In this document: piece by piece, positions 655 to 60,376 of the stretch | Position numbering within the stretch: position 1 is the first letter of the stretch | How the letters are laid out: every line of letters starts with the position of its first letter | Source of the DNA: a virus | IMG/VR virus record: IMGVR_UViG_3300050013_000065 | Coordinates: 1-64,000 of that record | Strand: one strand, 5' to 3' | DNA length: 64,000 nucleotides | Position numbers and translations under genes: made by a program | Notes under the pieces: model-generated | Told to the model about the DNA's origin: nothing | Databases searched by the model: none | The model's input: the letters and a program-made list of their open reading frames with translations, nothing else

Positions 655-684
655 CCGTCCATTATCTGGACAAAGGAGATTTCC

Positions 685-1077
685 GTGGCAAAGTTTACCG
701 TACTAACACACAATGACCGCAACCTCGTAATTGAGGCGGACCGTTTCGAACCTAACAACACCGACTATGTGTTCTTGAAGGACGGCAGCGTGGTGGGTTC
801 CATTCCCCGCTCGCCCAGCATCTTTGCAGTCGTCAATCAAGAAGCCGAGAAAGCCGACTTCTACTTCGCAGACCACCAAGACGACGATACCTACGCTCCT
901 CCCGTCTGCGAGTGTACTCCAGAGTTTGACGACGAAACCGACGACGTGTGTCTCGACTGCCGGTTCGAAGAGTTCTTGGAGTCTCAGGAATTCTACAACG
1001 CCGTGGCGGACATCGTCTGCGAGATGACAGGAATCACTGGGGAAGATGAACCCAAAGGCGCGGAGGTGACCGATTGA
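685..1077 (+). CDS. hypothetical acidic protein
   Basis: GTG start after AAAGGAG RBS. Confidence 0.65.
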   Translation: MAKFTVLTHNDRNLVIEADRFEPNNTDYVFLKDGSVVGSIPRSPSIFAVVNQEAEKADFYFADHQDDDTYAPPVCECTPEFDDETDDVCLDCRFEEFLESQEFYNAVADIVCEMTGITGEDEPKGAEVTD

Positions 1078-1134
1078 GCAAGGGATTCTCTTACGCAATC
1101 GTAGAAGGGGGTCTCGGAAGGGACCCCCAATGGA

Positions 1135-1653
1135 GTGACGGACGTGAGCAATAAAGGATACCGAAAAGATCCAGCCGAAAGATTTTGGAAAAAGGTAGAT
1201 TGTCTTGGAGAGGACGAATGCTGGAACTGGTCAGGGGCCTGCACCCACAATGGATACGGAGTCTTGGGTCCTAATCTAAAAGAAAGGCGCGCCCATCGTC
1301 TATCTTGGACTCTTCATTATGGAGAAATTCCAGATGGGGCGCTAGTTTTGCATTCTTGTGACAATAGGAAATGTGTCAACCCTAAACATCTATTTCTCGG
1401 GACTCCGCTGGAAAACACCGAGGATATGTACGCCAAAGGAAGAGAACAAAACCCAGGACCGAGCGTGATTCAGTACGGAGAAAATGTTCCTTCCGCTAAA
1501 ATATCAACGGAAGAAGCTAGACAGATTCGGTCTCTGTATCGTCCTTACCAAAGAGGGTTGACCAAATCTCTTGCCGAAAAGTTTGGTCTATCTCAAGGCC
1601 AAATTCGTGTCATCGCAACAGGCCGTCAGTGGTCACATTTGAAGGAGGAATAG
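1135..1653 (+). CDS. HNH homing endonuclease (HNH_3-like)
   Basis: CWNWSG..NGYG, AHRLSW, VLHSCDNRKCVNPKHLFLGT..EN motif and C-terminal HTH-like segment. Confidence 0.9.
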   Translation: MTDVSNKGYRKDPAERFWKKVDCLGEDECWNWSGACTHNGYGVLGPNLKERRAHRLSWTLHYGEIPDGALVLHSCDNRKCVNPKHLFLGTPLENTEDMYAKGREQNPGPSVIQYGENVPSAKISTEEARQIRSLYRPYQRGLTKSLAEKFGLSQGQIRVIATGRQWSHLKEE

Positions 1654-1654
1654 C

Positions 1655-2107
1655 GTGAGTGGATACATAAACGTTACAGTAGTTGGGAGTTTAGGTCGTG
1701 ATCCAGAGATTCGATCCACCACCTCGGGAAAGAAGATTGCTTCGTTCTCCGTAGCTGTGGATCAAGGCTACGGAGAGAACAAGAAGACCGAGTGGGTGAA
1801 TGTAATCGCTTGGGAAAAGCTAGCCGATCTGGCCGAGAAGTACCTCAAGAAGGGCAAGCAAATTGCCCTATCCGGGAGTCTTCAGACTTCCTCGTGGGAA
1901 GACAAGAAGACCGGCGATAAGAAGTACAAGACGGAGGTCGTAGCCCGAGATATTACCTTCATGGACTCTCCCGGGGGAAAGACCAACGATGCTCCCCGAC
2001 CGGAACGGCAAGCTCCCGCACCTCGACAGCAAGCCGCCCCAACCCCGCGAGCGGCTGCAACTGACAACCCGTTTGACGATGATGATGCGTCAGATATACC
2101 TTTTTGA
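1655..2107 (+). CDS. ssb: single-stranded DNA-binding protein
   Basis: GSLGRDPEIR, KTEWVNVIAW, YLKKG, acidic C-terminal DDDDASDIPF. Confidence 0.97.
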   Translation: MSGYINVTVVGSLGRDPEIRSTTSGKKIASFSVAVDQGYGENKKTEWVNVIAWEKLADLAEKYLKKGKQIALSGSLQTSSWEDKKTGDKKYKTEVVARDITFMDSPGGKTNDAPRPERQAPAPRQQAAPTPRAAATDNPFDDDDASDIPF

Positions 2108-3876
2108 GGAAGGAACTACGATGACTAACTTCTACTATGTCTACAAGGTCGGGGGAGGCAGACCGACCTTTCACCACCCAACATTTGAACAGGCTGTATC
2201 AGAGGCCCAGCGTCTAGTTGACTCGGTCGGCGGTGAGTATGAAATCCTCGAAGCCCGGGCGATTGTAAAGGCTGCTCCGAAGTATGTGATTGAAACGCTC
2301 AATCCATCTCCGTGGACGCCCTATCACTACAACGAGGTAGTGGTAGACGATCCGCCCTTCTAGGAGGCATCGTGTCCGAACAAATTGAATTCAAGAGAGC
2401 CGTGAATGAAATCGTGAAGCTGGCCGAGACAAAAGCCTGGAGTCTACCTTCAGCGGAGTACCGAGACTTCTTCAACGAAATCATCAAGGCTCTCAAAAAG
2501 AAAAGGGATGTGGAATGAGAATCCAAGTTACACAGAAGCATATCAATGCGGGTCTCCGGGGGAGTTGCTCTGGGGACCCAATTTGTTTGGCGATGAAAGA
2601 CGCCGGACTAAAAAATATTTGGGCATCTCCGAGTCAGTTGAGGTATAATGGAAGAATAACAGAAATTCCAGAAGAAGTTTTACAGTTTATGAAAAACTTC
2701 GACAACGAGATGCTTGTCGATCCGTTCGAATTTTTACTGGAGGAATGATGCCCAACGCTTGGAAATACAACGATAACGAAGATTACGATGAGTTCACCGC
2801 GAGGCAAGTAACGGTTCGAGACTTAATCGACTACTTAACCCAGTACTTGAGTGAATCTTCCGAAGGAGAAGGAAGAGAACAGTCCAGTCACAATGCCCCC
2901 TTTGGAGTATACATCTTCGACGAAGATGGTGAGTATTACACTCTCGCAGGTGCGGAGCTAAGCAGACGAATGGGGTGTGGGTGCGAAGACGGAATAAATT
3001 TGAGAATCAAGAAGTTTAGTCCAGATAATGGACAGGAGGAAGTATGAAAATTCTAAGCATGATTCAACGCGCCTTCGGCGAAGCCGACGACCAAGAGCAG
3101 GCTGAATTTCTAAACCAACTTGGCTACAGTCTCCTCGAAGCCTGTAAGTTCGACCACAACAAGGTAGAAGGACAACTCTGCTACGTGTCGTCCAAGTTGG
3201 ACAAGCACGGGAAGGAATTGATCCAACAACTCGCCGCGTTTATTGCCCTTCGAGAAAACGAGGAGCCTAGTCCATTTTCTGGACAGGAGGAGCAATGAAC
3301 AAGCTGGTGTTTAGCACAAACGAATACAGGGGCCACAATGTCCGAGCTTACTACGTTGGAGAATCAGGAGACGCCGAAATAGAGGTGTGCAGACCTGATC
3401 GTGTTGTGCGCGTATTCAAGGTTCCAGCATACAAGATCTGGAATTATGCCGCGCACGATACGGACCTAATTGATTCTATTCTGGATAAGGAGGACTGATG
3501 ATAAGCGGAGGAGGATCAACAACCAACACGACCGTTTGCGCTAGGTGCCTGCGGGACCTTGTGTGGAATGAAAGCCGAAAATCTCCAGTGTGGACAGACG
3601 TGCAGTCCGACAGTATGTATTGCCCTTTTGACGGTCGTCTGTCCCCCTCTGCTTTGGCAAAGGCCCATAAGCCGGTCTCCGGAGAAGCCCGATAATGCCT
3701 ACTTCAACTCCTTTGCCCGTAACTATCTGTGAACTGTGTGGGGCGACAAAAGAACCTACGCAATCTTGGAATCCTGTTTATGGGGACTGGACTTGGTACT
3801 ACGAGCACACTTCCCCGAACAGTTGCATTAAGTACCTGCGGTCTTTAATTGACGACACCAGATCCCGAAGGATTGT

Positions 3877-4914
3877 TTGATGCCCACTAAGAAGAAACCA
3901 ATCCCGAAGCAGATTACCCTCAATGAAGAGCAGCAAGCTGTGGTTGACGCGAGGCTCGGAGTATATGCGGTATATGCTGGGCCAGGAAGTGGGAAAACCA
4001 GTGTTGCTGTCCAAAGAGTAGCCGCTCTCGTCCGGGAAGGAGTAGACCCAAACAACCTGCTTGCCTTGTCTTTTACGGCCACAGCGGCGCGCAACCTACG
4101 GGACCGAGTCGAAGCGTTGACCGGTCCTTTGTCCATTACCCGGACAGCGGGGTCTATGACTCTGCACTCCCTAGCCTTAAAGTTTGCGGAGGAAGAAAGA
4201 AATGAATTTCCGTTTGAGCTCGCCGATTTTCCTTTGGCGACTGAGCCAGTTGCTTATCGTCTATCCGCCGAAGCCTCAAAACGCTATGAGATTGACCCCC
4301 GATCTCTACGCTCCGCGATTAGCTTATTTAAGAGGGGTCGCGTTCGTCCTGGTCAGGCCGTCGCTGACGCTGAATCGAAGGGGGACCCCAAGCAACTTCG
4401 ACTAGCCCTGGCCTACAAAGCGTATGACAAGAAGTGCCGGGAGGAAAAGGTTCTCGATTTCGACTCCCTCATGTTCGAGATGGTGGATTTGATGGGCAAG
4501 AAGAAGGCTGTACGAGACCGGTGGCAGTACCAGTTCGTGACCTGCGACGAGGCTCAAGATTGCTGCAAGACTGACTGGGAACTGTTAAAACTGCTATCGG
4601 AGAAATATGGAAACCTATTGGTAGTAGGCGATCCGGGGCAGTCCGTGTTCGGATTTCGGGGAGCATCTCCGAAACTATTTCTGAATATGGAAGAGATGTT
4701 TCCGGGAACTAAGAAGCTATTTCTGGCAACCAATTATCGAAGCACCCGAGAGCTGGTATCGTTCCTGAAAGAGATAGGACCCGTTCCAGAATTGTCCGAG
4801 CGGTTTACTACTCCAAACGACACCGGAGTTCGTCCCGAAATAAAAGGATTCGTATCCCCAGCACTAGAGGCCGAGTTTGTGGTAAAATGTATTCAGGAGA
4901 CACAAAATGTTTAA
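3877..4914 (+). CDS. UvrD/PcrA-like SF1 helicase, N-terminal half
   Basis: Q motif LNEEQ, Walker A AGPGSGKT, LSFT, DEAQD, VGDPGQSVFGFRGA, LATNYRST; ends at EAEFVVKCIQ. Confidence 0.93.
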   Translation: MMPTKKKPIPKQITLNEEQQAVVDARLGVYAVYAGPGSGKTSVAVQRVAALVREGVDPNNLLALSFTATAARNLRDRVEALTGPLSITRTAGSMTLHSLALKFAEEERNEFPFELADFPLATEPVAYRLSAEASKRYEIDPRSLRSAISLFKRGRVRPGQAVADAESKGDPKQLRLALAYKAYDKKCREEKVLDFDSLMFEMVDLMGKKKAVRDRWQYQFVTCDEAQDCCKTDWELLKLLSEKYGNLLVVGDPGQSVFGFRGASPKLFLNMEEMFPGTKKLFLATNYRSTRELVSFLKEIGPVPELSERFTTPNDTGVRPEIKGFVSPALEAEFVVKCIQETQNV

Positions 4915-5465: not shown

Positions 5466-5598
5466 ACAACCTAGATTTGTTGTATGAGATCAAAAACCGC
5501 CTCGGGATGCTCGACCTCGGTCTCGCCCTTTGTATCCCTTTGCTTGTTCTTAATATGGCTTTTACTGCCATTCTTCTGAACAGAAAGGAGTCCAGATA

Positions 5599-6423
5599 AT
5601 GGACAAACCGACTACGGCGATCCTCTGCCGGGTGAATGCCGGACTCAGGCCGTTCGAGCAGGCGTTGTCCGAAGCGGGGGTTCCGTTTCACTATATCAAC
5701 CGTGCGGGGTTCTTTTCTCAACCAGAAATCCAATCAAGCCTCGCTTATCTCGGAGCCTGTTTGTTCCCAGCTAACTATTTGATTTCAGGAATGTTGCGTT
5801 CGGATTTTCACCCTACTAAGTTCCTTCCGAAGACTAAACTAGCCGCCCGATTTAAGGAGTTGAAAGCCAACGACCCCGAAGTGTCTTACTGGACTCTGAT
5901 TACCAAGGAACCTAGAACGCTGGTCGATCCGAGAAACTTGGAAGCTCTGCAACACTTCTCACAGTTCGTCCACTCTCTGTCTAGATACCGAGACCTTCCC
6001 CCCTCTGAGGCCCTCAAACAGGTGCTCGGAGCTTTGAAGGTTGGAGACCATTTTGCTGAGCAAGAAACCATTGACAATGACCCCTTGCAGAACCTGTCTG
6101 ACTTGATAAAAATGGCAGGTAAGTATCGGTCCATCAAAGAGTTCCTGGATTTTACACGAAGAGTTGCCGCCGCCTCTCGGGCTAAGAAGGGGGTGGCCCT
6201 CGGAACAATCCACAGCGCCAAGGGCCTTCAGTGGCACTCGGTTTTCCTGGTAAGCTGCCAAGAGGGTATTTTACCTCATTCCAAATCTACTGATCTAGAA
6301 GGCGAACGGAACTGCTTTTTTGTGGCGTGTTCACGGGCCGAACAGAAATTGACTGTAACGTACAGTGGACAGCCAAGCTCATTTGTGATACCATACTTGC
6401 AGGTTAATAAGGAGGAAGCATGA
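5599..6423 (+). CDS. UvrD/PcrA-like SF1 helicase, C-terminal half
   Basis: AILCRVN, motif V TIHSAKGLQW..VF, motif VI ERNCFFVACSRAEQKL; own AAAGGAG RBS. Confidence 0.93.
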   Translation: MDKPTTAILCRVNAGLRPFEQALSEAGVPFHYINRAGFFSQPEIQSSLAYLGACLFPANYLISGMLRSDFHPTKFLPKTKLAARFKELKANDPEVSYWTLITKEPRTLVDPRNLEALQHFSQFVHSLSRYRDLPPSEALKQVLGALKVGDHFAEQETIDNDPLQNLSDLIKMAGKYRSIKEFLDFTRRVAAASRAKKGVALGTIHSAKGLQWHSVFLVSCQEGILPHSKSTDLEGERNCFFVACSRAEQKLTVTYSGQPSSFVIPYLQVNKEEA

Positions 6424-6893
6424 GATTCTGGACGCACAAAATGACAGATGAATCAGCACCGATTGAACCCACGTCTCTCGAACAAGCTCTCAAAGAGTAC
6501 CCAGACAAGGTTCAGGTTCTAGAAACCCCAACGGACCCGCCTCCTGACATGTCCACAAAGCCAAAGGACATTGTTGAGTATTGCTTTGGGTATGCCTGCC
6601 CGAAAAAGCACGTATTTGACCTATTTGACTCAATTACACCGGCTGGATATGATACCCAAAAAGCATGTCCAAAATGTGGGGAGTTGGCGAAACCATCGGT
6701 AATCCGAAAAATAGCAGAGCCGGTGTGGCGTAAGCTTATTTCAGACATGTCCTCGGAAATAAACGATGAATCAGAGTTTAAGTGGCGCACAACTTCCCTA
6801 GTTGGTTATAGAAAAATTACGCTGTGGAGCCGTTATGAGTTTGTCCATTATCTGGACCCAGTTAAGCCTAGACCAAGACGGAGGAAGAAATGA
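6420..6893 (+). CDS. Zn-ribbon hypothetical protein (paralogue of 19889-20338)
   Basis: ACPKKH...CPKCG, ends EFVHYLD. Confidence 0.6.
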   Translation: MRFWTHKMTDESAPIEPTSLEQALKEYPDKVQVLETPTDPPPDMSTKPKDIVEYCFGYACPKKHVFDLFDSITPAGYDTQKACPKCGELAKPSVIRKIAEPVWRKLISDMSSEINDESEFKWRTTSLVGYRKITLWSRYEFVHYLDPVKPRPRRRKK

Positions 6894-8077
6894 GTGTACT
6901 CTACACCAGCGCTTCTGGAAGACAAGTAACCCACAGTTCCTCTAGCGCGCTTGATACTTTTAGACTGTGCCGACGTAAATTCCGCTTGTCCCGCATCGAC
7001 GGATGGAAGCAGAAGGCCCGCAAAGCTAGTTTGGAAATTGGAAAGTGCTTGGAATCCGCCCTCCAGTTCTACCACGATAACGGCCTAAAGGACGGCGACT
7101 TTGAATCAGAGTGGCAGCGACTGTGGCTAAAATTTGCCAATATTGACCTCACCTACACGGACCAGGAGAAGGACTGGAAGAACGTCTATGATCTTGGAAA
7201 GGACTGGGCACGGCTATACCCCATTCTCCTCCCCACATTTCCAATCCGAAACCCCAAGTGGCAGCTTCAGTTCCTCAAGGAATTGTGGCCTAGAGATCCC
7301 TTGTATGGCGGTCTCAGCTTCATGGGATACACCGATATGCTGTCTACGTTAGAAGACGGAACCCGACTAATCATCGACGTGAAGACAGCTGCAAAGGCAC
7401 TCCCAGTAACCTCGGATTTGATGGCTCTCGATGGCCAACTCCGAAAGTACGCATGGGTAAGTGGGATAAACCAAGTCAGTTTCTTAAACTTCGTAAAATG
7501 CGACCCTAGTTCCTTTCGTAAAGGAGTGGACGTAACTCTACTAGAGGATACCCGAGATTGGAAGGCTGGGCAACCCCTGGTCGTTTTCAAAGCTGAAGAG
7601 AAGCAGTTCGGAGCTTCTGAAACTCCTCTCCTGCTGCTTACCCTCGGAACTGCCGAAACTGTCCGGATAATGGACGAAGAGTTAGACATCATCAAGGGGA
7701 AGGGAAGTACGGAAGCCAAGGCGGCGGTAGTCTCTTCTTATCTCTCAGACGGTCGGCTGTGTGTAGTTGAAAGATCGGGGGTCACTAAGGTCAAAATCCA
7801 ATTCGTTCGTGGTACAATACCAGAAGAAGACTTGCCAGAGATCGGGCAACAGATCGGGCAGGATATGATCGCTCTCAAATCCGCGTCTGATACCAACTCC
7901 TTCTTCAAGGATGGTGGTGTGCGATTTCCAAATGCCATTTGTGGGTGGTGCGAATTTTTGCCCATTTGCAACCGAAATGACCAGCGTCGGGACGAGACCT
8001 TAGTTCAAATCAAACCCGCCAACGCCACTGAAGAGAAAGACTGGCTCACCGAATTAGAAAGCGAGGACGGTGAATGA
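6890..8077 (+). CDS. PD-(D/E)xK nuclease (RecB/Cas4-like exonuclease)
   Basis: S.SALDTF..C, GYTD...IIDVKT, QLRKY, C-terminal CGWCEF..IC cluster. Confidence 0.85.
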   Translation: MSVLYTSASGRQVTHSSSSALDTFRLCRRKFRLSRIDGWKQKARKASLEIGKCLESALQFYHDNGLKDGDFESEWQRLWLKFANIDLTYTDQEKDWKNVYDLGKDWARLYPILLPTFPIRNPKWQLQFLKELWPRDPLYGGLSFMGYTDMLSTLEDGTRLIIDVKTAAKALPVTSDLMALDGQLRKYAWVSGINQVSFLNFVKCDPSSFRKGVDVTLLEDTRDWKAGQPLVVFKAEEKQFGASETPLLLLTLGTAETVRIMDEELDIIKGKGSTEAKAAVVSSYLSDGRLCVVERSGVTKVKIQFVRGTIPEEDLPEIGQQIGQDMIALKSASDTNSFFKDGGVRFPNAICGWCEFLPICNRNDQRRDETLVQIKPANATEEKDWLTELESEDGE

Positions 8078-8582: not shown

Positions 8583-8883
8583 TGGCCTACGAATATGTAA
8601 AACAGTATTACGGAGTTCCTGTTGAAATTGGACAGAGGGTTTCTATGGAAGGTCGTAGACTGGAGTACGGGACTGTGGTCCGGAAAAGGGCGTACGATCA
8701 ATATGTCCATGTCCGCTTCGATGGCCAGAAGTTCGATGTCCCCGTACACCCTCTGGACTTGAAGTATCTTGCTCCGGGCGAAGAGATGTCCGGTTAAATG
8801 TCCGGATAATGGATTCCCACGAAACAGGCAGTATAATACTGTTTTACGACTGGAAATAACGTTTTACGACGGAGAGGAGGAAA

Positions 8884-9391: not shown

Positions 9392-10054
9392 ATGAAAATC
9401 AAGAAAGAACTTCAAGCGGTGTGCGCGGCTTTCGGGGAAAAACCAGGGGGTTACCAATCAACCTGGGAAGACGCTCAGGCTTTGGCGGTGGTCCACTCTG
9501 TCGGTGCGGTAGTTCGGGACTTCACTGAGTGGATGGAAGAGAACCAAGGGGATGATTTTTCCTACGGACCGGTATCGAAGTATCTGCAAGTAGCCTCAGC
9601 ACGACTTTCCAGTGGTGCCTCGCCTGTCTCAGCGGCTTTGAAGGACCCGGAGGTAGTAGCACTAGTCCGAGAGCTGTCCTACGCGTCTGGGGGCCAAATC
9701 TGCTTCGTAGATAAGCAACGTGCTCGGCTGGCAGAAGTGCTGAAAGAGTTCTCCGCCGAGGAAATCAAGTCCGCGTTCAAAACTTGGGTTGGGGCGCAGG
9801 ACCTGAACGACCCTAAGAACGTATCCTTCCTGCCCGGAAAGTTCGTCCAGATAGTGGACAACCTCACCTACGCCGCCCGGAAGCAGAAGCAAGAAGCCGA
9901 GGAAGCCAAAACCCAGAGGGACGCCGCCGTAGTCAAAATGCAGGAGCAGGCCGAGCTTGAACGGAAACAGGCAGAGGAGAAGAAAGCCAAAGAGGCCCAG
10001 ATTTTTGATCCTCTCGCCGATTTGCTGTCCGAAAATGACCAAACTGTGGTATAA
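9392..10054 (+). CDS. hypothetical replication-associated protein
   Basis: 220 aa, AAGGAG RBS, coiled-coil C-terminus, between rep-like gene and primase. Confidence 0.6.
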   Translation: MKIKKELQAVCAAFGEKPGGYQSTWEDAQALAVVHSVGAVVRDFTEWMEENQGDDFSYGPVSKYLQVASARLSSGASPVSAALKDPEVVALVRELSYASGGQICFVDKQRARLAEVLKEFSAEEIKSAFKTWVGAQDLNDPKNVSFLPGKFVQIVDNLTYAARKQKQEAEEAKTQRDAAVVKMQEQAELERKQAEEKKAKEAQIFDPLADLLSENDQTVV

Positions 10055-10885: not shown

Positions 10886-12766
10886 TTGGTCATAGTGGAT
10901 AATCTGGACGAAATCAAAGAAAACCCGGCGGTTCTGAAAATCTACGGGCAGTACGTGCATGGGTTGAAAAAGGCTGGGAATCTGTATACCGGCTCGTGCC
11001 CTCTTCATCAGGATTCTCATCCGTCGTTTTCGGTTTACCCGGACATGCGTTGGACTTGCTTCTCTGGGGCGGACTGCGGGTCGGGGAACATTTTTCAGCT
11101 CATCGAGCGTGTAGATAAAATCAGTTTCCAAGAGGCCGTAGAAAAAGTGAAAATCGAGATAGGGCAACCAGACTCGTGGAAGAAGGACAAAGAACGTGTC
11201 GAGAGCGTATTCAAGCCCGTGTCCGAAAAGAAAGTCTACAAGACAATTCAACTGAGTCGTATTGCTTCTTTGGAAGAGGCTTTGAAGAACTCCCCAGAAG
11301 CTATCCATTATCTGGACACGCGGGGGATTACACTTGAGACTGCTCAACAGCTAAGACTTGGATTCGTCCAGAATCTGGGGTCCTTAGCGGGAGAAGAAGG
11401 AAAGGATATTGCCGACAAAGGCTGGCTGGCCTTTAACTACCTCGACGGCGATCTTGTCCGGCTAATCAAGTACCGAAGTCTAGTAAGGAAGCGACCGGGT
11501 GGCTTCGCCCGGCAGTTTGGCATGGAGACTGTTCTCTACGGGATCGAGGATATTGATCCTTTTGAGCCTATTTATCTAGTGTCCGGAGAGTTCGACCGGG
11601 CAGTAATGAAACAAGCCGGGTTTCGTGCGGTCAGCCTAGCCTCAGATACGCATAAACCAACTCCCGAACAAAAAGACCAGTTGATGACTGCGAGTATGAT
11701 AATCCTTGCCGGGGATACTGACACCGTCGGTTCCCAGACTATGGATCGTTTGTGGAAAGAGTTTGGAAACCACTCGTACAAACTAACTTGGCCAGACGGC
11801 TCCAAAGATGCCAACGATGTGTTTCTCAACGCCTGCGGACGCGACCTTTCAAAATTCAAGAATCTTGTAGACGAGTTAACGAGTAAGGCTAAGTCACAGC
11901 CGATGCCTTCTGTATATTCCTTGCAGGAAACTATGCGGTCCGGAGATGACGCGGTTCTCTCTGATCACCCAGATAGAATGCGCGCTCCGTGGCACGACGT
12001 GGACACAATGGTGAATATCATGCCGGGGGACGTGGTCGGAATCAATGCCACGAATAGTGGTATGGGCAAGAGCACTTTTGTGTTACAATGGACTTTGTAT
12101 AATGCCAGGAAGTACGGTCGGTCGTTTGTAAACTTCCAAGCCGAAATGCGTCCTGCTGAGATTGCTACAATGGTAACAGCGCAGGTTCTCAGGAAAGATA
12201 GAAATTTTCTGACCGGCTCTGATAAGAAACAGGCCGCGAATGAGTTGGAAGGCGTGGAATATTACGTGGGGTTTGATCCAGTTTTGAATGGCATCAACGC
12301 GGTCCTTGATCTACTTGAGGCTGCTATTAAACGTTTGTCGCCATATGGGGTCGTGTTGGATCACTTCCACCACCTGACCACGGGAATGAACAACGAGACG
12401 CAGGTGCAGACAGCGGCAATGACCCGGATCAAGCAGATAGCTGAGACCTACAAGGTTGTGTTCTTTAACGTGGGTCAGCCCCGGAAGGCAACGCAGCAGA
12501 CAAAGGGTAAGCAGATTCATCTGACAGATGCAAAAGGTTCCGGAGCTTGGGCGGACGCCTCAAACTCAGTGGTTACGATTCACCGAGAACTAAACAAAGC
12601 AGACGACCCCACGATGACTAAGGGCGTATACGAAGATCGTACGCTCGTCAAGTTACTGAAAGGTAGATCAATGGGAACCGGAAACTCGGCTTGCTATCTG
12701 ACATCGTTTGGTGAGTTCGCCAGCTTTGAGCAAATCGATACAAACCACGAAAGTTACGAAGAATAA
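10886..12766 (+). CDS. DNA primase-helicase (CHC2 Zn finger + TOPRIM + DnaB/SF4 helicase)
   Basis: CPLH..HPSF...C....C; SGEFD, AGDTD, KDAND; Walker A SGMGKS; VVLDH; KGSG. Confidence 0.93.
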   Translation: MVIVDNLDEIKENPAVLKIYGQYVHGLKKAGNLYTGSCPLHQDSHPSFSVYPDMRWTCFSGADCGSGNIFQLIERVDKISFQEAVEKVKIEIGQPDSWKKDKERVESVFKPVSEKKVYKTIQLSRIASLEEALKNSPEAIHYLDTRGITLETAQQLRLGFVQNLGSLAGEEGKDIADKGWLAFNYLDGDLVRLIKYRSLVRKRPGGFARQFGMETVLYGIEDIDPFEPIYLVSGEFDRAVMKQAGFRAVSLASDTHKPTPEQKDQLMTASMIILAGDTDTVGSQTMDRLWKEFGNHSYKLTWPDGSKDANDVFLNACGRDLSKFKNLVDELTSKAKSQPMPSVYSLQETMRSGDDAVLSDHPDRMRAPWHDVDTMVNIMPGDVVGINATNSGMGKSTFVLQWTLYNARKYGRSFVNFQAEMRPAEIATMVTAQVLRKDRNFLTGSDKKQAANELEGVEYYVGFDPVLNGINAVLDLLEAAIKRLSPYGVVLDHFHHLTTGMNNETQVQTAAMTRIKQIAETYKVVFFNVGQPRKATQQTKGKQIHLTDAKGSGAWADASNSVVTIHRELNKADDPTMTKGVYEDRTLVKLLKGRSMGTGNSACYLTSFGEFASFEQIDTNHESYEE

Positions 12767-16738: not shown

Positions 16739-17093
16739 AACAGTCCGCGTAGAACTCGGAGAAACCGGTCTCCCGATCCGCATATTCCGGGATAAGCAAT
16801 GGTTAAACTACCCTACGGTAGAAATGACCAAGGCCAAAGCGGTGGGGGGAATTCGAAAGCAAGTATTTCGTAGATGTTGGAATCCATTATCTGGAAACTT
16901 CGAATGCGAAAAGTGTGGACGAACAATCACTTGGACTTCTGGAGAAATGAACGAGAAAATCGCGAAGGGTTCTGGTGGGGAAGTAAGTTTGAGCAACTGT
17001 GAAGCGTTATGTCACAGTTGTCACACAGGAAGTCCGGATTCCGCTCACGGAGACCGGAGATGGCAAACAGCAAAATTGAGTCCGAAGGAATAA
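16728..17093 (+). CDS. HNH-like nuclease (catalytic His apparently substituted)
   Basis: CEKCG...EMNEKIAKGSGG..SLSNCEALCHSCH. Confidence 0.75.
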   Translation: MPSKTVRVELGETGLPIRIFRDKQWLNYPTVEMTKAKAVGGIRKQVFRRCWNPLSGNFECEKCGRTITWTSGEMNEKIAKGSGGEVSLSNCEALCHSCHTGSPDSAHGDRRWQTAKLSPKE

Positions 17094-17095
17094 CA

Positions 17096-21828: not shown

Positions 21829-21855
21829 TCCAGATAATGGACAAAGGAGACCTGT

Positions 21856-46251: not shown

Positions 46252-46852
46252 ACATTCTCCTATGGCTAATCCAAGCCAAACGGGTTGTCCATTAATCGGA
46301 CTGGTTAAGCAATTTTCTTTGCGTTACGGTGGTTGTTCAGTTTCTTGTACCAAAGCGAATTGACGCCACCCGAAGGGGGTCCGAATTCCTTTTCACACTG
46401 TTCTTCTGTTAGGAACAAAGAACATTCTATCGTTCTCTTCCCGGGCTAGTTGTTCTTTTGACTTCAGAACTTCACGAGGCTTAGTAGTCTCCAAAATAGC
46501 TTCAGCGAGTTTAGCATTTGCTTCTGCGGCGGCGGTTTGGGAGGCGAGCAACTGCTGTTGCATCGAGGCGATTAGCGTGAACAGAGCGTCTGTAGAAATA
46601 GGTGTTACGCGGCTATTGAAAGTCTGAGGGGTTTCCTCAACGGCTTCGGTTTCTTCATTTTGGTTCTTGGGTGGTCTTCCTGCGGGCATACATTCTCCTA
46701 TGGCTAATCCAAGCCAAACGGGTTGTCCATTAATCGGACTGGTTAAGCAATTTTCTTTGCGTTACGGTGGTTGTTCAGTTTCTTGTACCAAAGCGAATTG
46801 ACGCCACCCGAAGGGGGTCCGAATTCCTTTTCACACTGTTCTTCTGTTAGGA
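45981..46852. repeat. tandem duplication, 434 bp x2 (45981-46414 and 46419-46852)
   Basis: apparently identical copies at offset 438. Confidence 0.93.
46393..46689 (-). pseudogene. truncated duplicate of 45643-46251
   Basis: first about 90 aa identical, then a junction-derived tail. Confidence 0.8.
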
Positions 46853-47450: not shown

Positions 47451-47827
47451 AACTTACTAGGCTCTGGTTTGTTTGGATCGGGGAAAGCTTCGTTCAACTT
47501 AGCTTCGATGGTTTTAACCACGGACTCGGCTAACTGGTTGTCCTCGAAGTTGTCGGCGTGAGCTGCAATCTCTCGTTCCAATGAGATTTCCCCCGAGGGT
47601 TGCCGAACGACTGCGGCAATTACATAACCGATGACGTTTTCGAAACCTCCGATGGGGTCTTCTTGTGCTCTTAGAACCGCGATAGCAACTGACATTTGAT
47701 TCCTTAGTCCATTATTCGGACAAGTTGTTGCGGGTGTTCTCGATATCTCACGTTTGGTTTTACTGAGAGACCCCGAGACCCGTGTACCCGCTCTGCGCAT
47801 TACTACGTAGAGACACCCGCACGTCGT

Positions 47828-50372: not shown

Positions 50373-50676
50373 TGTTCCTCTGGGTAGATACAAATCGCAG
50401 ACCGTAGTAGAAAGTTAAGATCGGACGTTGCCCGGTTGGAGTCGTAATCTGACTACGATAGTAGAGGTCATCTAAAATCTTGTCGGAGCGACCCAACCTG
50501 CCCAACCTGCCTCCTCGCTCATTCAGGGCTAGTGAACGATTGGATTGGCTGGTTCTCTTGCGGTCTGCATACGTCCATTATCTGGACAAACTTGGGAGGC
50601 CGGGACAGTTGAAAGGAGGAAGAAAGAACTGTCCCGGCAGGCTGTCCTATATTTATGAAGGAGGCGGACAGCCGAT

Positions 50677-51123: not shown

Positions 51124-51576
51124 CACTTTTACGGAATTTTTATCCAAAAACCAGGAGAGTACTCATAGACAACCCCTCGGTGTGCTAGGAGCGGTCGAAA
51201 ATCATCAGGAAACCTAACCAACTTGTCCATGAATTATTTCAACTTCCAAAAGAGATTAGCTACGTGCATCAAGCCGGGCTCCCCAAATCCAGACCATGTT
51301 TCTTTCGCAAAATCCGAACCGTTCATTCGAAATAGCACAAACTCGGCCAGAGTGTTTTCAGGAGGAGGAGACTTCCAATATTTAGTTAGTCCCTCTAAGT
51401 TTGGGGGAAACTCTGATTTTTCAACCACGTGTTTGTCCATTATTCGGACTCCTTCTTCGGAGTGATATTCCAGACCCATCCAGAATTGCAAGCAGCCAAG
51501 TGCTCCAAAGGAATCTGGTTGGGCGGGTAGATCACACCCTCTTTGTAGATTCTCGGAACTCCATCAGTTAGCCGCT

Positions 51577-51821: not shown

Positions 51822-54800
51822 TTACGATGACGACGTTTCTGACTGCAAACGCTGCTTGTTGCGTCCATTATCTGGACGGGTCGATCATTTCTGTCGGCCT
51901 CATACGGTTTCGTTTTCCGTATGGTCGGACTGTTGCATACTCTTTCGAGTCTTCTTCGCTCAGTCTCTCACGGTCTCTTTCGAGTTCCGCCTCGTCACCA
52001 TTTCAGGGTTCGAGTCAATCAGAAGAAGTTTAGGCTCCGCCGCTGCTTTAACGGAGTGTCATCGTGCTTCCCGGCACATGTTACTCATTCTAAACATCTT
52101 AGAACGGAGTAGATCGTTTCCGTCTACTTCATACGGTTTTTGTTTCCCGTATGCTCGGACTATTGCATGTCCATTATCTGGACCCGCTTCGCTTAGTCTC
52201 TCAGCCTGCTTTCGCTTGGCCCTCCTTGGCATTTCAGCGTCGGAGTCAATCAGAAGTGGTTTATACTGCGCCCGTATGTTAACGCAGTGTGTTGGTGTAG
52301 CGCACATTGTAAGAAACCCATCCGCCAATTTGGCGAGCTGGATCGCTCACGCTTCCCTGCTCAGGAGCACTCTGAATAAACAGCTTATAGTTCTTCGAGC
52401 CGTCATTCGGGTTCTTCCCGCGTATGTTACTCATTCTAAACATCTTAGAACGGAGTAGATCGTTTCCGTCTACTTCATGCAGTTACTATTTCTGCATGTC
52501 CAGACTATTGCATCGTCCATTATCTGGACGCCACTTCGCTTAGTCGTTCACGGTCTCTTTCGAGTTCCGCCTCGTCACCATTTCAGGGTTCGAGTCAATC
52601 AGAAGTGGTTTTCCTACGCAGATTACGCTGCGAGGTCCCCGGAGTTAAGGAACACAGAGAAGATAGCATCGTCGCCGAAAATGTAACTATTGTAATACGT
52701 ATTGCCTGAAATAGTCACAGTGGGGGCAGTGGATGTCTGTTTGAAAGTAACACCCGCGAACGAGATGGTATCCTCATTCTTAGGCAGTTCAAACAGCATG
52801 TTGCGCATCTCGTCGCTTCTCTTGATGATGTCCGACAATCCGTTGAAGGAGGTGTCGTTCAAAACATCTCTGACAACATTAGGTAATTTTGTTAATCGGA
52901 GTTTTTACTTCCATCCGTGGTGTTCCGAGATTAGAACGCAGGGTGTTGCCTCGTTCAATAAATCCCCGGTCTCCCATGGGTGACCCACTCCGTACAGGTC
53001 AGTCACCTGATCTGTTTTCTTACAGTCGCCTGTAAGTTCGGACTCTATCTTCGCCGTCCATTTTTCGGACGGGTCCGGCGTATTAGTCTCTACGGGTTTG
53101 CCTTTGCGATTCAATTCTTTACAAAGAGAAATAATCTCATCTCTGCGCTCCATGCTTCCGAATCTATTCAGTTGCACATATTCTAACAACAGAGCCGCTT
53201 GTCTTTGTTTTATCTTCAGATGAGGTATTATGCCCTTCAACAGAACTTCTTTGCTTTCGTTTCCGAGAGCAACCCAGGTCCATTGGTTCTTCCACTTTTT
53301 CTTAGCCATAGGTCTGAAATAAACGGTACCCCCAAATTTCTCCAATAACCAATCTAGAGGTTCTTTGGTGGTAAGACTCATGGATATTCGGGAGTCCCGG
53401 TGTATGTAGGGCTTTCCCTTTGTGGATATAGAACGACCGCGAGATTTTGTTTTGTGAGACGTGGCCGCTATGTGGCCTTCTCCGTCTATTAGTCCCGCTG
53501 CGTACGCAAAATCTACTTCTGAAATAATTGAATCAGGCATCTTCCCTCGGTATTGTCTGGAATTTCACTACAACAAGTCTATCACAAACGACAGAAATTG
53601 TCAACCAGAGATTCACCGATTTAGCCAGATTTTATATCCACCCTATATACGGCTTACGCCGCTTGGTGATAGTTTTGATAATGGATAATTCCACCAAATT
53701 TGTTGTCCACGAGAGGACGAGCGTTGACGCTTACCAGCGACTGAGCAGCAGACCGGATGTTATTCGCGGTCAGATACGAGCCGTTCGCAAGCTGGATGTT
53801 GACCAAGCTATCGACCGCAACAGCCGAGTCAGCGGTAAGCTGGACCAAGGAGTTGAGGGTGAGGGCTAGGCGGTAGTTTAGTTCGTTCCTTTTTGTTACC
53901 GTCCAGATAACGGGCGGGGCTGGTCATTTCTGCCAGCCTCTATACATCGCTGCATAGAGCGGACTATCGCATCACCCCGAAGGGCGTCCTCTTGTTTAGT
54001 CTCTACTGCTGCCCAGCCGAAGCCTGCTTGCAGTCTGTTGTCTCCTTGCGGAGAGTTCCAGCTTAATTAAAGAGGATTTATACTGGCCCATTGGGTTAAG
54101 CCAGATTCTGCAATAAACCCGGGTCATCTATCGCGACATCCAACGCTAGGTCAGATGAATTGATGAAGTCGGCATATTGCCCGCAATGTGTTTAGGCAAC
54201 CAACATCACTGTTGGTGCGCTCTCGCAGTCGCCTACGAGGTCAGACTCTATCATCTGTCCGTTATCCGGACAGGCAACCGTATTAGTCGTTAGGGATATT
54301 CCGCGATGATTTAGTACTCGAAATTTTTTGATAACTTCTCGGGTCTCATCATCAGAAAGATTTCTTCGGTTTCGAAACCAGTCAAGTAGGAGAATAGCTT
54401 GCTCTCGTTTAGTAACCATATAAGGCAAAATAGCTAAGAGAGTAGTTTCCAAGAATCGGGTCGGTAGTACCCAATTTCCTAGTTCACGATGTTCTCTTTT
54501 GGAAGAGCTTACGCTGCCGCCAAACTTTTCAAGAAGGAAATCGAACACTCTCATGTCCGTATTGGGAAGCTGAATCTTGGGGTCGAAAGAACGTTTTGAT
54601 TCATACAAACTCAAAGTTCCTTCGGCGTCTAAAATTCCGGCTAAATATTGATAGTCGTCCTTGCTCGCTGTAACTTCTTCTACATCTCTGTGCATTCTTT
54701 TTACTGGCTCAAAAAATCCGTTCCTAAAAGAAACGTAATCAGACAGTTCTTTTCTAGCATCAGAATTGTGGTAGCTTCTCCCCCCCAATCCAATAAATTG

Positions 54801-57697: not shown

Positions 57698-58028
57698 TCC
57701 TCTTGATATAATCCAATATCAACGGGTAGGTGTTTAAGGAAAAAGTATACGTTATTTCTTAGTGGAATTGTCCATTATTCGGACTTTCAGCCAATGTTTG
57801 TGGAAGTACGAGTTATCCAAGCTTGGCCGGTGGCCCAGGACCAATCACCAACGTACGGCTGCGGGTATCCGGGCCAAGGCTGAATATACGGAGAGGATAG
57901 TGGGTTCTTTCTACCACAACATGGGCAATACCCACAATTGGGGCAAACGTGTTGCGTCTGCTGATTAGGTTCCCCTCCGCACGAAAGTTGTGTATATGTG
58001 CTTGCTTGTCCTACGAGATTCTCGTCCA

Positions 58029-58370
58029 CTACGCCTCCTGCTGTTTCAAAACATCAAGTTTATCTCGGAACCCACTTAAGTACGCCGTGAACTCCGTATC
58101 TGGGTGTAGTGCGAATTCCATTGCATTTTCGAGGTCCTGCTTGAAGAAAGTCTCGAATTGACTCAGGACAGAAAGTCCGGCATGGGAGGCTACTACTGCG
58201 GGGTCTCCCGGCGGAAGAGATCGATGCGCTTGGTCAGTACCATCTACGTAGCTGTGGACAGTATCAAAGATGATCTCCCAGGCTTGGTCTGGTACTGTTC
58301 GTAGAATCCGTCCCCGTTCGTACACATCAATCTTGCCTTCTAGTTCATCGGGGTAGATAATGTCGGTCAC
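58029..58370 (-). CDS. hypothetical protein
   Basis: 113 aa between portal and scaffold. Confidence 0.6.
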   Translation of the reverse strand: MTDIIYPDELEGKIDVYERGRILRTVPDQAWEIIFDTVHSYVDGTDQAHRSLPPGDPAVVASHAGLSVLSQFETFFKQDLENAMEFALHPDTEFTAYLSGFRDKLDVLKQQEA

Positions 58371-58575
58371 GACTGCCCTCCGTACCGCTTAATAAGCCCG
58401 TCGATGTCTACATACCCTTTTTGAGGGGGAGGAGGTGCGGCGGATACTCGGCCCATACGTCCTGTTTTGACTTGGTGGGCTTGGTTGATTAGGTTCTGAA
58501 TCTCGGCGTCCGACATTCGATCATAATCGGTGGCGGGGATAGCGTTGTCTTTAGTACTAAAATTTGGTTGAGTCA

Positions 58576-59361
58576 TTAGTAGTCGTCATCCCTCCAATCG
58601 TCGTAGTCGTACTCTGGCTCGTTTTCTTCCTCTAGTTTTTCCGGAGGGATGATGTCGGTTCTCACACTCCACTCCGGCCCAGAAAAGATTTTCTCTAACG
58701 CTTTCTCAGGGTTCTTGAGGGCTTTGCGGTATTCCCGAACGCCCACAAAAAGTTTATTGATCTGGTCGTCTGAGAGAGCGTCCAGACCTTCCGCCGGGTA
58801 CGCGTAGCCCCCGATAGACTTTCTTTCGTCCTCTACCTTTTGGTAAAGTTCTTCTTGTGTATAGGAGGGGGTGAACTCTTCTTCCGAGTTTTGGGATGTG
58901 GGAAATTGCGTTATTCTCCCGTCCGGCCAGAATCTTGTGCCCGCAGAAGACCATCTATTAAACGAAGGCTTTGCGCGCCATTCCGCGTAATCTTTGTCTT
59001 CCGGGAGGAAAATTCTTTGGCAGACAGTACAGATTCCAACAGCCGCACCCGTATCCAAAGTGTGCCAGACGATGCTCGTCCTTCCAAAGGTATCTTGCAT
59101 TTCGCTTAGAGGATTACAGCCAGCAACGTGGGGGCAGTTGTCTTGCTCGTCTTTCTTGTAACGCTCTTGTCTTTCTCGTAATTCTTTCGCTAGTTTTCTA
59201 AACGTAGATTCACGAGTTTCTTCTTCCAGGAGCGCCTGCGCTTTTCTCTTGAATTCTTTCAGAAAATCCTCTAGTGCGGAAAGAAGAGGCTGTAACAAAT
59301 CTTCTAACTTTTGGGCCATCGTGTCTCCTGCATCAATCCGATGCCTCGGGGGTTTGTCCAT
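58576..59361 (-). CDS. hypothetical protein with Cys/His domain (paralogue of 45643-46251)
   Basis: CPHVAG..IVWH..GICTVC. Confidence 0.7.
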   Translation of the reverse strand: MDKPPRHRIDAGDTMAQKLEDLLQPLLSALEDFLKEFKRKAQALLEEETRESTFRKLAKELRERQERYKKDEQDNCPHVAGCNPLSEMQDTFGRTSIVWHTLDTGAAVGICTVCQRIFLPEDKDYAEWRAKPSFNRWSSAGTRFWPDGRITQFPTSQNSEEEFTPSYTQEELYQKVEDERKSIGGYAYPAEGLDALSDDQINKLFVGVREYRKALKNPEKALEKIFSGPEWSVRTDIIPPEKLEEENEPEYDYDDWRDDDY

Positions 59362-60376
59362 TATCTGGACGGTTTAGTTGGGTGTCTATCCAATCGGCTA
59401 TTTGGCGGTGTTCGGCGGCGGTGCCCACGTTCTTGATTCTGTTTGCTCGCCAACTGATTACCGCAACATTTCCGGGAACGTATCCGAGTTCGGGGATGAT
59501 CTTGTCTAGAGTCGGCGAACTGTCTTGCATCTTTCCAAGACCGGGCCTGATAGGTATTCCGAGAATGGGACAAATACTGGGAATGAGAAAATCCTCTTTT
59601 GTGATAGAGAACGGAAATCCACCTCTCTTTGCCCGCCCTTTCGCGCTAGCGGTAAGCCGGTACAAATGCTTTTTAACAGCCGGAGTTGTCTCAAATACAA
59701 AAGAAGAAATACCTTCGATCCAGTTGGCAATCAGCCGGTGTTCTTTAGCCGTCCCGTCAGTCTTTAAAGTATTCGCCCGGTAGCTTATTACTGCGACATT
59801 TTCCCGAATGTATCCCAACTCAGGAACAATTCTATCCAAACTTGGAGATTCATCGTGATGAACTCCGGTCCCCCGTTCTAACGGTATCCCCAGAATAGGG
59901 CACAAGCGGGGAATGACCACATCTTCCTCCACCAAAGAAAAGGGTATATTATTCTCTTTGGCGCGGTTTTTAGCGGCATAAAAAATAGAGTACGAGGGTC
60001 TCTTCCGTCGCTTATCTTTCTGTTCTTCTAGAATGCGAGGCTTATTTTCCTCGTAAAAATCTTTACTTCTCGCAATATTTTTATCTCGGTTTATGACGTG
60101 ACGAGATCGACGATATTGCTTTATTTCTTCTGAGTGGGTTTCGTTATACGCTTTTTCTGCTTTGCGAATAGAGTCTCTATTTTTTAGATTATATTCTCGA
60201 TTTTTAGCGAGTATTTCTTCTTTGTTCTCCGCGTAGTACTCTCTTCTTCTCCGGGAAAAGCAGGATTTACAGTCGTTTCGAAACCCATCTTTCTTGCTTA
60301 AGTCTTTGTAAAACTCTGTTAACGGTTTAACTTCGCCGCACTTAGAGCAGCGTTTCATCATGGCTTCTTCTGTCAT
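59333..60376 (-). CDS. His-Me finger/HNH-type endonuclease with two tandem nuclease domains
   Basis: CSKC..CKSC; two CPILGIP...SP.LD.I.PELGY...NVAVIS.RAN..K domains; start placed after the AGGA RBS. Confidence 0.87.
   Translation of the reverse strand: MTEEAMMKRCSKCGEVKPLTEFYKDLSKKDGFRNDCKSCFSRRRREYYAENKEEILAKNREYNLKNRDSIRKAEKAYNETHSEEIKQYRRSRHVINRDKNIARSKDFYEENKPRILEEQKDKRRKRPSYSIFYAAKNRAKENNIPFSLVEEDVVIPRLCPILGIPLERGTGVHHDESPSLDRIVPELGYIRENVAVISYRANTLKTDGTAKEHRLIANWIEGISSFVFETTPAVKKHLYRLTASAKGRAKRGGFPFSITKEDFLIPSICPILGIPIRPGLGKMQDSSPTLDKIIPELGYVPGNVAVISWRANRIKNVGTAAEHRQIADWIDTQLNRPDNGQTPEASD

Follow-up and report, generated by a model that had tools for sequence, protein, structure and literature searches.

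A dispersed, lineage-specific 15-bp quasi-dyad in peat and permafrost phages suggests a genome-wide protein-binding array

A 15-bp quasi-dyad, GTCCAGATAATGGAC, and its close variants are written into the genes, gene junctions and introns of a phage whose DNA is found in peat and permafrost metagenomes. We analysed the first 64 kb (the window) of the 75,483-bp viral contig IMGVR_UViG_3300050013_000065 from IMG/VR (genome G000; completeness about 70% according to CheckV) and compared the word with that of related phages. The word is over-represented, is selected at the nucleotide level, is conserved between relatives, is flipped in place at orthologous positions and changes in concert throughout whole lineages. 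The copies are probably sites on double-stranded DNA bound by a single sequence-specific protein that acts in trans and is most likely a product of the phage's own genome. That a protein binds them we infer from this pattern, and in the same way we infer which protein it may be and what biological role the array may have.

An exact search recovered 18 copies in the window, the first at 657–671 and the last at 59356–59370, compared to none in 100 dinucleotide shuffles. Allowing up to three mismatches gave 46 matches, corresponding to 45 distinct sites, where 1.6 were expected (largest shuffled count 7). The entire 75.5-kb contig holds 20 exact copies and 52 sites. All 18 exact copies and all 21 variants reported in the initial annotation were found again by these searches, and six sites were added (4131, 10895, 11303, 23227, 26468 and 34166), among which the membership of 10895, 26468 and 34166, each counted at three mismatches, is doubtful (Table 1). 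The initial annotation had also proposed a codon-preserving shuffle. When synonymous codons were shuffled 500 times within the 82 coding sequences (CDS), the mean number of in-CDS copies was 0.50 and the maximum 4, compared to 17 in the actual sequence. Codons are therefore arranged to spell the word, and the peptides said to result from different frames (VHYLD, VQIMD or VRIMD, SPLSG, SIIWT, and PDNG or PNNG) were all present.

Across G000 and its relatives, the general word is GTCC-RRN-TAATGGAC, where GTCC (positions 1–4) and (T/A)AATGGAC (positions 8–15) are invariant and positions 5–7 follow R-R-N. Mirror symmetry is limited to positions 1–5 versus 11–15 (GTCC/GGAC plus A5:T11), while T8–A10 are invariant without mirror partners, and perfect two-fold symmetry of the arms was not found. 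The site is therefore a quasi-dyad with a much stronger right half. A simple palindrome does not describe it, as GTCC on the left is under far weaker constraint than TAATGGAC on the right. Searched for by itself, TAATGGAC has 39 occurrences in G000, among them 32 within full sites. Around the word we detected a weak preference for T two bases 5' of it and for AA after it. Beyond this, no conserved flanks were found in a search extending to 35 nt, and the word is therefore without a −35-like or −10-like partner.

The 15-mer GTCCAGATAATGGAC is also multi-copy in other IMG/VR contigs, and about ten related peat and permafrost phages carry an array of 25–60 sites per genome. We compared the whole records of G001 (about 80% nucleotide identity to G000, syntenic), G002 (110 kb, complete), G003, G004, G006, G007 (106 kb, 98% complete) and G008, which is a relative in its structural module only. 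Further examined were 48 portal loci and 17 and 25 loci around a candidate reader gene described below; the wider comparison of protein variants with site words drew on IMG/VR and metagenome loci. Every relative with a portal identity of at least about 64% has the array, while those at 59% or less, and G008, have none. Since G008 shares only structural genes with the clade and is without the array, possession of the array follows the module for replication and regulation. Every lineage has a consensus of its own: the centre is AGA-T in G000 and G001, GAA-T in G002, G003 and G009, AGG-T or GGG-T in G004 and AGA-A in G007, and several short contigs have an AGT centre. G006 switched both outer bases (TTCC...GGAA, word TTCCAGATAATGGAA), almost completely in the right arm and at about two thirds of the sites in the left arm. 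The distant relative L330 (IMGVR_UViG_3300012922_000007), whose homologue of the candidate reader is 35% identical, has a related, re-spaced word, GTCCAG(A/T)TCCGGACA, in about 5–9 copies within 20 kb. Concerted, lineage-wide change at 40–50 places argues for a co-evolving reader that acts in trans.

Between G000 and G001, motif columns are 93.8% identical versus 84.1% for the 30-nt flanks (p=2e-4), and sense and antisense copies do not differ in conservation, with about 14.5 of 15 positions kept in either class. Where in-gene sites could be aligned to relatives at 45–60% amino-acid identity, the word persists in about 10 of 17 (6843, 7661, 9845, 15304, 16245, 27079, 28384, 32429, 47707 and 54257). 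Word-free orthologues differ by substitutions and not by a 15-nt insertion or deletion (indel), with for instance SSVMWG in place of ASIIWT (68978), IEWLQ in place of IHYLD (11303) and LTTTRT in place of LSITRT (4131); judged by these alignments, sites arise by substitution rather than by insertion. At two orthologous positions (28384 and 32429) the word is inverted in place, so that the peptide changes, while the centre of every copy is the one usual for the genome in which it lies. Neither a selected peptide nor a selected directional signal readily accounts for such flips. The proposal that selection acts on the nucleic acid, and that the copies form a binding array for a probably dimeric protein, is thus supported by the shuffle excess, the conservation above flanks, the flips, the conservation of antisense copies, the lineage consensus and the lack of conserved flanks.

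We classed 300 sites from seven genomes by placement and orientation. Junctions and other non-interior DNA, which make up about 23% of the sequence, contain 58% of the sites (a 4.6-fold density), and 42% lie in gene interiors. About a quarter of the copies are start-linked and lie 10–13 nt before a start codon, directly ahead of the Shine-Dalgarno (SD) sequence. In agreement with the initial annotation, which saw copies just ahead of the ribosome-binding site (RBS) or supplying the TAATG overlap, many copies fill the short gap from a stop codon to the next RBS, in either orientation (GGAC-AGGAGG-ATG at 657, 3019, 3270, 18165, 19334, 21828 and 72567), and in others a TAATG or ATG within the motif provides the stop and start (5590, 23495, 37062, 59356 and 70345). 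The remaining copies are intragenic and occupy every permitted frame. Both orientations occur within one transcription unit, on both transcription arms, and the seven genomes together have 200 sense and 100 antisense copies (33% antisense). The G+C-richer tailspike region between 37 and 44.4 kb has no copies; its tailspike and tail-fibre genes (37100–44400; beta-helix, pectate-lyase-like) have a G+C of 0.54, and such motif-free, G+C-richer DNA would, as expected, fit a recent acquisition.

On the minus strand, the capsid gene region (51800–56500) is interrupted, and its highly conserved short open reading frame (ORF) pieces look like exons (for example 52623–52862, 83–96% identical in relatives). 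While Rfam at the gathering threshold found nothing in the window, there are weak group I intron hits at 53019–53179 (E=8e-4) and 54222–54385 (E=0.5), and in both of them the motif forms the P8 hairpin just before J8/7-P7. J8/7-like strings also follow the copies at 52169 and 52515, which belong to a repeated 230–350-nt unit. A contig from an RNA library (depth 90.5, a close variant) joins 52883 to 53691, 53888 to 55248 and 55341 to 56332, and a DNA run is without these joints. This places the copies at 53056, 53901 and 54257 within stretches that the mature capsid mRNA no longer contains. Taken together, the RNA joints, the group I hits and the exon-like pieces support a capsid gene with multiple introns. 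The intron placement of copies claimed by the initial annotation is confirmed in part only, by the P8 alignments of 53056 and 54257 and by the three stretches skipped in the RNA contig.

Contrary to the initial annotation, which saw no obvious cognate repressor in the window, the gene at 15816–16535 encodes a plausible, weakly supported candidate reader of 239 residues. Its segment RRRSQLYAILSVAEVLLP...IGITKAHELRRLV resembles, by eye, a ParB helix-turn-helix (HTH) with the helix that follows. An AlphaFold2 model (predicted local distance difference test, pLDDT, 78.7) matched Spo0J bound to parS (4umk; E 0.29, probability 0.84–0.89), Noc and a ParB DNA-binding domain (DBD) in the top rows of a Foldseek search (E 0.29–1.5). 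VIA-align against 48,161 chains, a scan independent of Foldseek, placed two such structures on top, the ParB DBD with parS (6s6h_B; Z 7.7, root-mean-square deviation (rmsd) 6.4, 127 aligned residues) and Spo0J (1vz0_A; Z 7.6, rmsd 4.0, 109 aligned), and gave Z 5.9 for the KorB DBD with its operator (1r71_A). Modelled as a homodimer, the protein scored 0.76 compared to 0.00 for the best control, a score reached by 20 of 30 known homodimers and by 1 of 23 proteins solved as single chains; runs shared at least 91% of contacts, and the pLDDT of the partner was at least 81. The modelled interface comprises residues 14–63 and 173–235 (N- and C-terminal helices) and leaves residues 64–125 with the HTH region free. 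Like the motif, the HTH segment is nearly invariant between lineages. The four residues before it read DRRR in 36 and GRER in 58 of 116 homologues; at position 5, about 77% of the sites carry A in DRRR lineages and about 77% carry G in GRER lineages, a rule that holds in seven of eight lineages each way. A further correspondence, in which the residue after AE of the helix (AET) would track A8, failed, as lineages with GRER and AET carry T8. Of 145 homologues, the 120 listed have no Pfam domain and almost all are unnamed or 'hypothetical', with one labelled regulator of RNase E activity. In the ESM Atlas the nearest named cluster was only DUF3102, at 0.91, and the DUF3102 profile hidden Markov model found nothing. 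Among the genes shared by all motif-bearing genomes, 15816–16535 would be the best, if weakly supported, candidate for the reader, and we treat it as a lead and not as a result.

Several observations weigh against the candidate, or against a DNA-binding array as such. Z scores under 8 and a Foldseek E of 0.3 are within the range of chance matches among helical proteins, and sequence profiles of the candidate retrieved nothing relevant from PDB sequences or Pfam. The ParB_N domain (PF02195) was not found in G000, G001, G002, G006 and G007, while the control search was positive in 11 of 14 well-known genomes. Since the protein tree is poorly resolved, the association of DRRR and GRER with position 5 may reflect shared ancestry (phylogenetic inertia). 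The motif-less G008 has a 28%-identical homologue, the candidate gene lies in the replication module and not beside an integrase, and so markedly asymmetric a site is awkward for a homodimer. Orientation is also non-random, with 123 sense and 50 antisense copies at junctions and 77 and 50 in genes; this skew counts against the array since a purely symmetric DNA function does not predict it, although the sense bias may come partly from the usefulness of TAATG as stop and start at junctions. Finally, an overlap with a site was seen for just 2 of the 17 strong promoters of G002.

If the copies are protein-binding sites, the reader would contact a 15–17-bp quasi-dyad in which TAATGGAC is the strong half, the inverted GTCC the weaker one and the centre depends on the lineage. 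About one such site per 1.5–2 kb would be kept by selection wherever the sequence tolerates it, be it in gaps between stop codon and RBS, in TAATG overlaps, in peripheral hairpins of group I introns or at tolerant spots of proteins. The 239-residue protein may be this reader, as a homodimer with two free ParB/KorB-like HTH units. Since it has no CTP-binding ParB N-terminal domain and ParA (PF13614) is absent from the same five genomes, it would be a plain site binder rather than a sliding partition clamp. A ParB clamp with CTPase was therefore rejected, and the partition role considered by the initial annotation found no backing, as neither ParA nor ParB_N was detected. Protein and word may drift together into specificity groups. 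As for function, the array may serve genome-wide silencing or a roadblock in the prophage, in an immunity-like, stoperator manner with little dependence on orientation, or alternatively genome organisation. Silencing and immunity are favoured because relatives carry a tyrosine integrase and because the word drifts like an immunity specificity, while no homologue of an immunity repressor was recognised. The integrase was present in all four more complete relatives tested with an integrase profile (G001, G002, G006 and G007), which makes the clade probably temperate, judging from gene content; in G000 the contig is missing this region. In its fullest form the proposal is tentative, and we regard it as possible rather than probable: a clade of temperate peat phages of about 100 kb would control its chromosome by a stripped-down ParB-type HTH dimer without CTPase and ParA, through about 50 quasi-palindromic 15-mers that extend into essential genes and intron hairpins, form co-evolving immunity-like groups and can be inverted in place.

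The word might instead act as RNA, namely as a 5-bp stem with a pentaloop 5' of the RBS and in intron P8/P9, in mRNA processing, stability or translation or as the site of an RNA-binding protein. It folds at −7.0 kcal/mol in sense and −5.8 kcal/mol in antisense orientation, A or G at position 5 keeps an A-U or G-U pair, and the change from G1:C15 to T1:A15 in G006 keeps the pair as well. The start-linked quarter of the copies directly ahead of the SD sequence, the two-to-one excess of sense copies in the seven genomes and the P8 alignments in group I introns point the same way. An RNA role is nevertheless unlikely, since one third of the copies are antisense and equally conserved, orthologous sites flip, and the unpaired centre and the 3' arm are invariant in sequence and not merely paired. 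Outside G006, single-arm changes (AT..AC 25, GT..AT 17, GT..AA 9) far exceed compensated ones; the G006 and GAA variants fold more weakly (−4.5 and −4.9 kcal/mol), copies within introns are lost from the mature mRNA, and a change of loop or outer pair at all sites of a lineage calls for a reader and not for a fold. A host protein (regulator, nucleoid protein or defence factor), whose sites the phage would collect to recruit, titrate or evade it, accounts equally well for all DNA-level evidence, and the lineages could have hosts with differing orthologues. We rate this explanation as unlikely, too, as relatives from the same peat and permafrost habitats have different words and as the words track residues of a phage protein. 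In a search of 185,579 species genomes, which gave at least 120 matches to the exact 15-mer, those listed were all single copies in unrelated taxa; this is about the chance level and constitutes weak evidence against a host protein, and no host or host array emerged among the matches listed. For the sponging of a host regulator, one of the roles considered by the initial annotation, the data speak neither for nor against.

That the word is a promoter element for the phage's own sigma-like factor (17009–17614) is improbable in our view, although the phage encodes a sigma-70 region 4 protein and its portal is SU10/phiEco32-like. Promoters of phiEco32 gp36 have the consensus AATGTA centred at −11.5 (PMC12276001), a −10-like element that AATGGA, the most invariant part of the motif, resembles; sense copies are favoured at junctions (123:50), and after masking no other strongly over-represented word was left in G000. 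A promoter element is directional, however, and 33% of the copies are antisense, equally conserved and flipping in place, with more than 40% (42% in the classed set) inside genes, unlike the gp36-type promoter. Several sense copies supply the start ATG or leave about 10 nt that hold the SD sequence, so that a transcript would start after it. The two-fold symmetric switch of G006 would be meaningless for a −10 element, and the recognition helix of region 4 is hypervariable, differing in almost every lineage, while 12 of 15 motif positions are invariant. Moreover, G002 has a separate promoter word, the extended −10 element TGTGGTATAATG, with about 17 copies oriented with the local genes (L122–L127, for example L122:7583 and L127:4527); G000 has only three TGnTATAAT. 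A −10 element of the host sigma-70 was rejected because the hexamer GATAAT of G000 is GGTAAT in G004 and a −35 partner is missing. That the word is recognised by a phage endonuclease or nickase (with localized single-strand interruptions like those of T5 and LUZ24-like phages), or by another DNA-processing enzyme, is quite improbable. The nick sites of T5 and tf/LUZ24 are indeed dispersed conserved words on both strands, and the genome is rich in HNH, endonuclease VII (Endo VII) and LAGLIDADG nucleases. But no nuclease gene except that for Endo VII is conserved across all motif-bearing genomes, strong positional conservation as observed here is not known for nick sites, and nicks are invisible in assembled contigs. 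A selfish or mutational origin, be it as a miniature mobile palindrome, as scars of recombination where modules meet or through templated correction of quasi-palindromes without function, is very improbable. The length of the word, 15 nt, equals five codons, in-place flips suggest hairpin-templated events, and 13 of 94 ends of G000/G001 blastn blocks lie near copies versus 2.95 at random. Against this, motif-free orthologues show substitutions and not 15-nt indels, the sites are better conserved than the sequence around them, and they change in a concerted way from lineage to lineage. As a mosaic boundary or recombination site the word was rejected, since the breakpoint excess was gone when only gene junctions were compared (odds ratio 0.99 and 1.1); so was a mobile insertion, as no informative orthologous comparison showed a 15-nt indel, and the presence or absence of insertions that marks a mobile miniature palindromic element was not found.

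KorB on the IncP plasmid RK2, with its OB sites, and Noc, with its NBS sites, are ParB-family HTH dimers that read a short palindrome at many dispersed places of a replicon and exert global control beyond partition. The model of the candidate best matches the DNA-binding domains of KorB, Spo0J, ParB and Noc; KorB, Noc and ParB carry a CTP-binding N-terminal domain, however, which is absent here, ParA was not found and sequence profiles give no link. Start-associated sequences (SAS) of Cluster K mycobacteriophages, mentioned in PMC4351075, are conserved short words directly ahead of many translation starts. They are asymmetric, tied to starts and contain the RBS, whereas here about a quarter of the copies are start-linked and both orientations occur. 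Among published cases, the closest is the 17-bp dyad repeat of Cluster O mycobacteriophages, TGTTCGG-NNN-CCGAACA, with more than 30 copies scattered over each genome (Cresawn et al. 2015, PMC4351075). Many of these copies are intergenic and about one third intragenic. The centre of the repeat is variable and mildly asymmetric, there is no consistent orientation, most copies are not at promoters, and the authors predict a dimeric binder for this repeat of unknown function (PMC4351075). Here, too, more than 30 copies of one short dyad are dispersed between and within genes and are not tied to promoters. In contrast to the strong half TAATGGAC of the present word, the Cluster O arms of 7 bp are perfectly symmetric and invariant; Cluster O phages have no integrase, unlike relatives studied here, and belong to an unrelated lineage and habitat, and lineage-wide word drift and in-place flips are not described for them. 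Stoperators of the temperate Cluster A mycobacteriophages (L5 gp71 and relatives) are repressor sites that number up to 30 in a genome and lie in genes as well as between them; in related phages their motifs resemble each other without being identical, and they diverge in step with the repressors' genetic distance (PMC6550527, PMC9283540). Many sites within and between genes (52 in 75 kb) and a word that drifts between relatives are found here as well. However, stoperators are 13 bp long and asymmetric, bind a monomeric two-domain repressor and predominantly point one way relative to transcription (PMC6550527, PMC9283540), whereas the present word is a quasi-dyad, one third of its copies have the opposite orientation and no repressor homologue was found. 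New here are the asymmetry, the in-place flips, the intron-embedded copies and a well-resolved series of lineage-specific words.

The genome itself encodes replication and recombination genes on the plus strand up to about 24.6 kb, among them those for a single-stranded DNA-binding protein, a UvrD-like helicase, exonucleases, a T7 gp4-like primase-helicase, a sliding clamp, Endo VII and the sigma-like protein. Beyond this point, structural genes on the minus strand include those for an SU10-type portal and beta-helix tailspikes. The window had no near match in a phage genome collection, and a tRNA search of it found none. A helicase core (3877–4914) and a UvrD_C domain (5599–6423) together represent a UvrD-like helicase in two pieces with three small ORFs in between (4907–5599); the UvrD_C piece begins at the ATG of a motif copy, and a split gene, an intron or an inserted cassette are possible. 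The adjacent genes 8884–9276 and 9392–10054 are separate in G000, G002 and G003 and correspond to a single protein of 375–419 residues in G001, G006 and G007; they adjoin the primase-helicase gene and could encode an alternative DNA-binding or initiator protein. Two Zn-ribbon paralogues (6420–6893 and 19889–20338; CxxH...CxxC) both contain EFVHYLD, in each case from an antisense motif copy at the same position of the protein. A direct repeat of 300 nt, 100% identical (45981–46280 and 46419–46718, 438 nt from start to start), is followed in both copies by GTCCGATTAATGGAC; it reflects either a small gene of the structural arm that was recently duplicated in tandem or a repeat produced by assembly. 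In about 28 kb absent from the G000 contig, G002 codes for RecT, a family A DNA polymerase, a clamp loader and the tyrosine integrase (L122:15181–16266); it also has a Ro60/TROVE plus vWA protein (L123:7370–8752). G007 (L183–L188) carries a second over-represented word, ACGCGCACTCGGCC-like, in about 15 copies and unrelated to the motif.

Table 1. Motif sites of the window, the candidate reader gene and the sigma-like gene (columns: feature, coordinates, strand, context; mismatches are relative to the exact word).
Exact	657..671	-	intergenic, 13 nt before GTG start at 685, then AAAGGAG; 15/15 kept in G001
Exact	3019..3033	+	end of gene 2745-3047, 10 nt before ATG at 3044, then AGGAGG
1 mismatch	3270..3284	-	antisense, 10 nt before ATG at 3295, then AGGAGG
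2 mismatches	4131..4145	-	helicase gene 3877-4914 (LSITRT); relatives LTTTRT, motif-free
Exact	5590..5604	+	TAATG is stop of 5435-5599 and start of UvrD_C gene 5599-6423
Exact	6843..6857	-	Zn-ribbon gene 6420-6893 (VHYLD); kept in G002, G003
1 mismatch	7661..7675	+	exonuclease gene 6890-8077 (VRIMD); kept in G001, G002, G003 with lineage-type centres
2 mismatches	8800..8814	+	intergenic, end 17 nt upstream of TATAAT
1 mismatch	9845..9859	+	gene 9392-10054 (VQIVD); kept in G001, G002
3 mismatches, doubtful	10895..10909	-	start of primase-helicase gene
1 mismatch	11303..11317	-	primase-helicase gene (IHYLD); relatives have other residues, no indel
1 mismatch	14864..14878	-	sliding-clamp gene (SPLSGL)
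Exact	15304..15318	+	sliding-clamp gene (VQIMD); kept in G001, G002, G003
Candidate reader, 239 residues	15816..16535	+	present in all relatives with the motif; weak fold match to HTHs of ParB/Spo0J/KorB type; homodimer predicted
1 mismatch	16245..16259	+	within the gene of the candidate reader (VRIMD); G001-G003 keep it, with lineage-type centres
2 mismatches	16882..16896	-	upstream of sigma-like gene
Sigma-70 region-4 protein, 201 residues	17009..17614	+	weak match to a solved sigma factor; rival reader or separate promoter system
1 mismatch	18165..18179	+	10 nt before GTG at 18190, then AGGAGG
Exact	19334..19348	-	end of Endo VII gene, then AGGAG and ATG
Exact	20144..20158	-	Zn-ribbon paralogue 19889-20338 (VHYLD)
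Exact	21828..21842	+	first G ends TAG stop of 20338-21828, then AAAGGAG, ATG at 21856
1 mismatch	22201..22215	-	gene 21856-22269 (VHYPD)
Exact	23010..23024	+	intergenic, then GAGGAGG
3 mismatches	23227..23241	+	right half TAATGGAC intact
Exact	23495..23509	+	G ends TAG stop; ATG starts gene 23504-23725
Doubtful	26468..26482	.	GTCCA/TGGAC arms, unrelated centre
1 mismatch	27079..27093	-	gene of 1328 residues (SPNNGL); kept in G002, G003
Exact	28384..28398	+	gene of 1328 residues (GPLSGQ); flipped in place in G002, G003 (xPNNGQ)
Exact	30820..30834	+	non-coding, antisense to arm
1 mismatch	31218..31232	+	
1 mismatch	32429..32443	+	gene 31750-32514 (SIFWT); kept in G001, G002; flipped in G003
3 mismatches, doubtful	34166..34180	-	
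1 mismatch	37062..37076	-	ATG starts gene 36702-37067
Exact	44457..44471	+	near 5' end of tailspike gene 41702-44497
Variant GTCCGATTAATGGAC	46287..46301	-	just past first copy of perfect 300-nt direct repeat
Variant GTCCGATTAATGGAC	46725..46739	-	same position beside second copy of 300-nt repeat
Variant GTCCGAATAATGGAC	47707..47721	-	CPNNGL; kept in G001, G002
Exact	50573..50587	-	
Variant GTCCGAATAATGGAC	51435..51449	-	
Exact	51863..51877	-	capsid-gene intron zone
Exact	52169..52183	-	then ATGCAATAGTC (J8/7-P7-like); in repeated 230-350-nt unit
Exact	52515..52529	-	then GATGCAATAGTC; same repeated unit as the 52169 copy
Variant GTCCGAAAAATGGAC	53056..53070	-	P8 of weak group I intron hit; in 52884-53690, skipped by RNA contig
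2 mismatches	53901..53915	+	antisense; in 53889-55247, skipped by RNA contig
Variant GTCCGGATAACGGAC	54257..54271	-	P8 of second weak group I intron hit; in skipped 53889-55247
Variant GTCCGAATAATGGAC	57770..57784	-	intergenic
Exact	59356..59370	-	ATG starts gene 58576-59361

Dispersed dyad words had earlier been reported in phage genomes (Cluster O) without an explanation. The peat and permafrost clade is unusually informative in this respect, as about ten genomes have the same system with different words and one conserved candidate reader. This series of protein variants and site variants could allow the protein–DNA code to be tested directly and may also reveal the role of the array. The case further shows that a signal at the DNA level can strongly shape protein sequences and intron structure.

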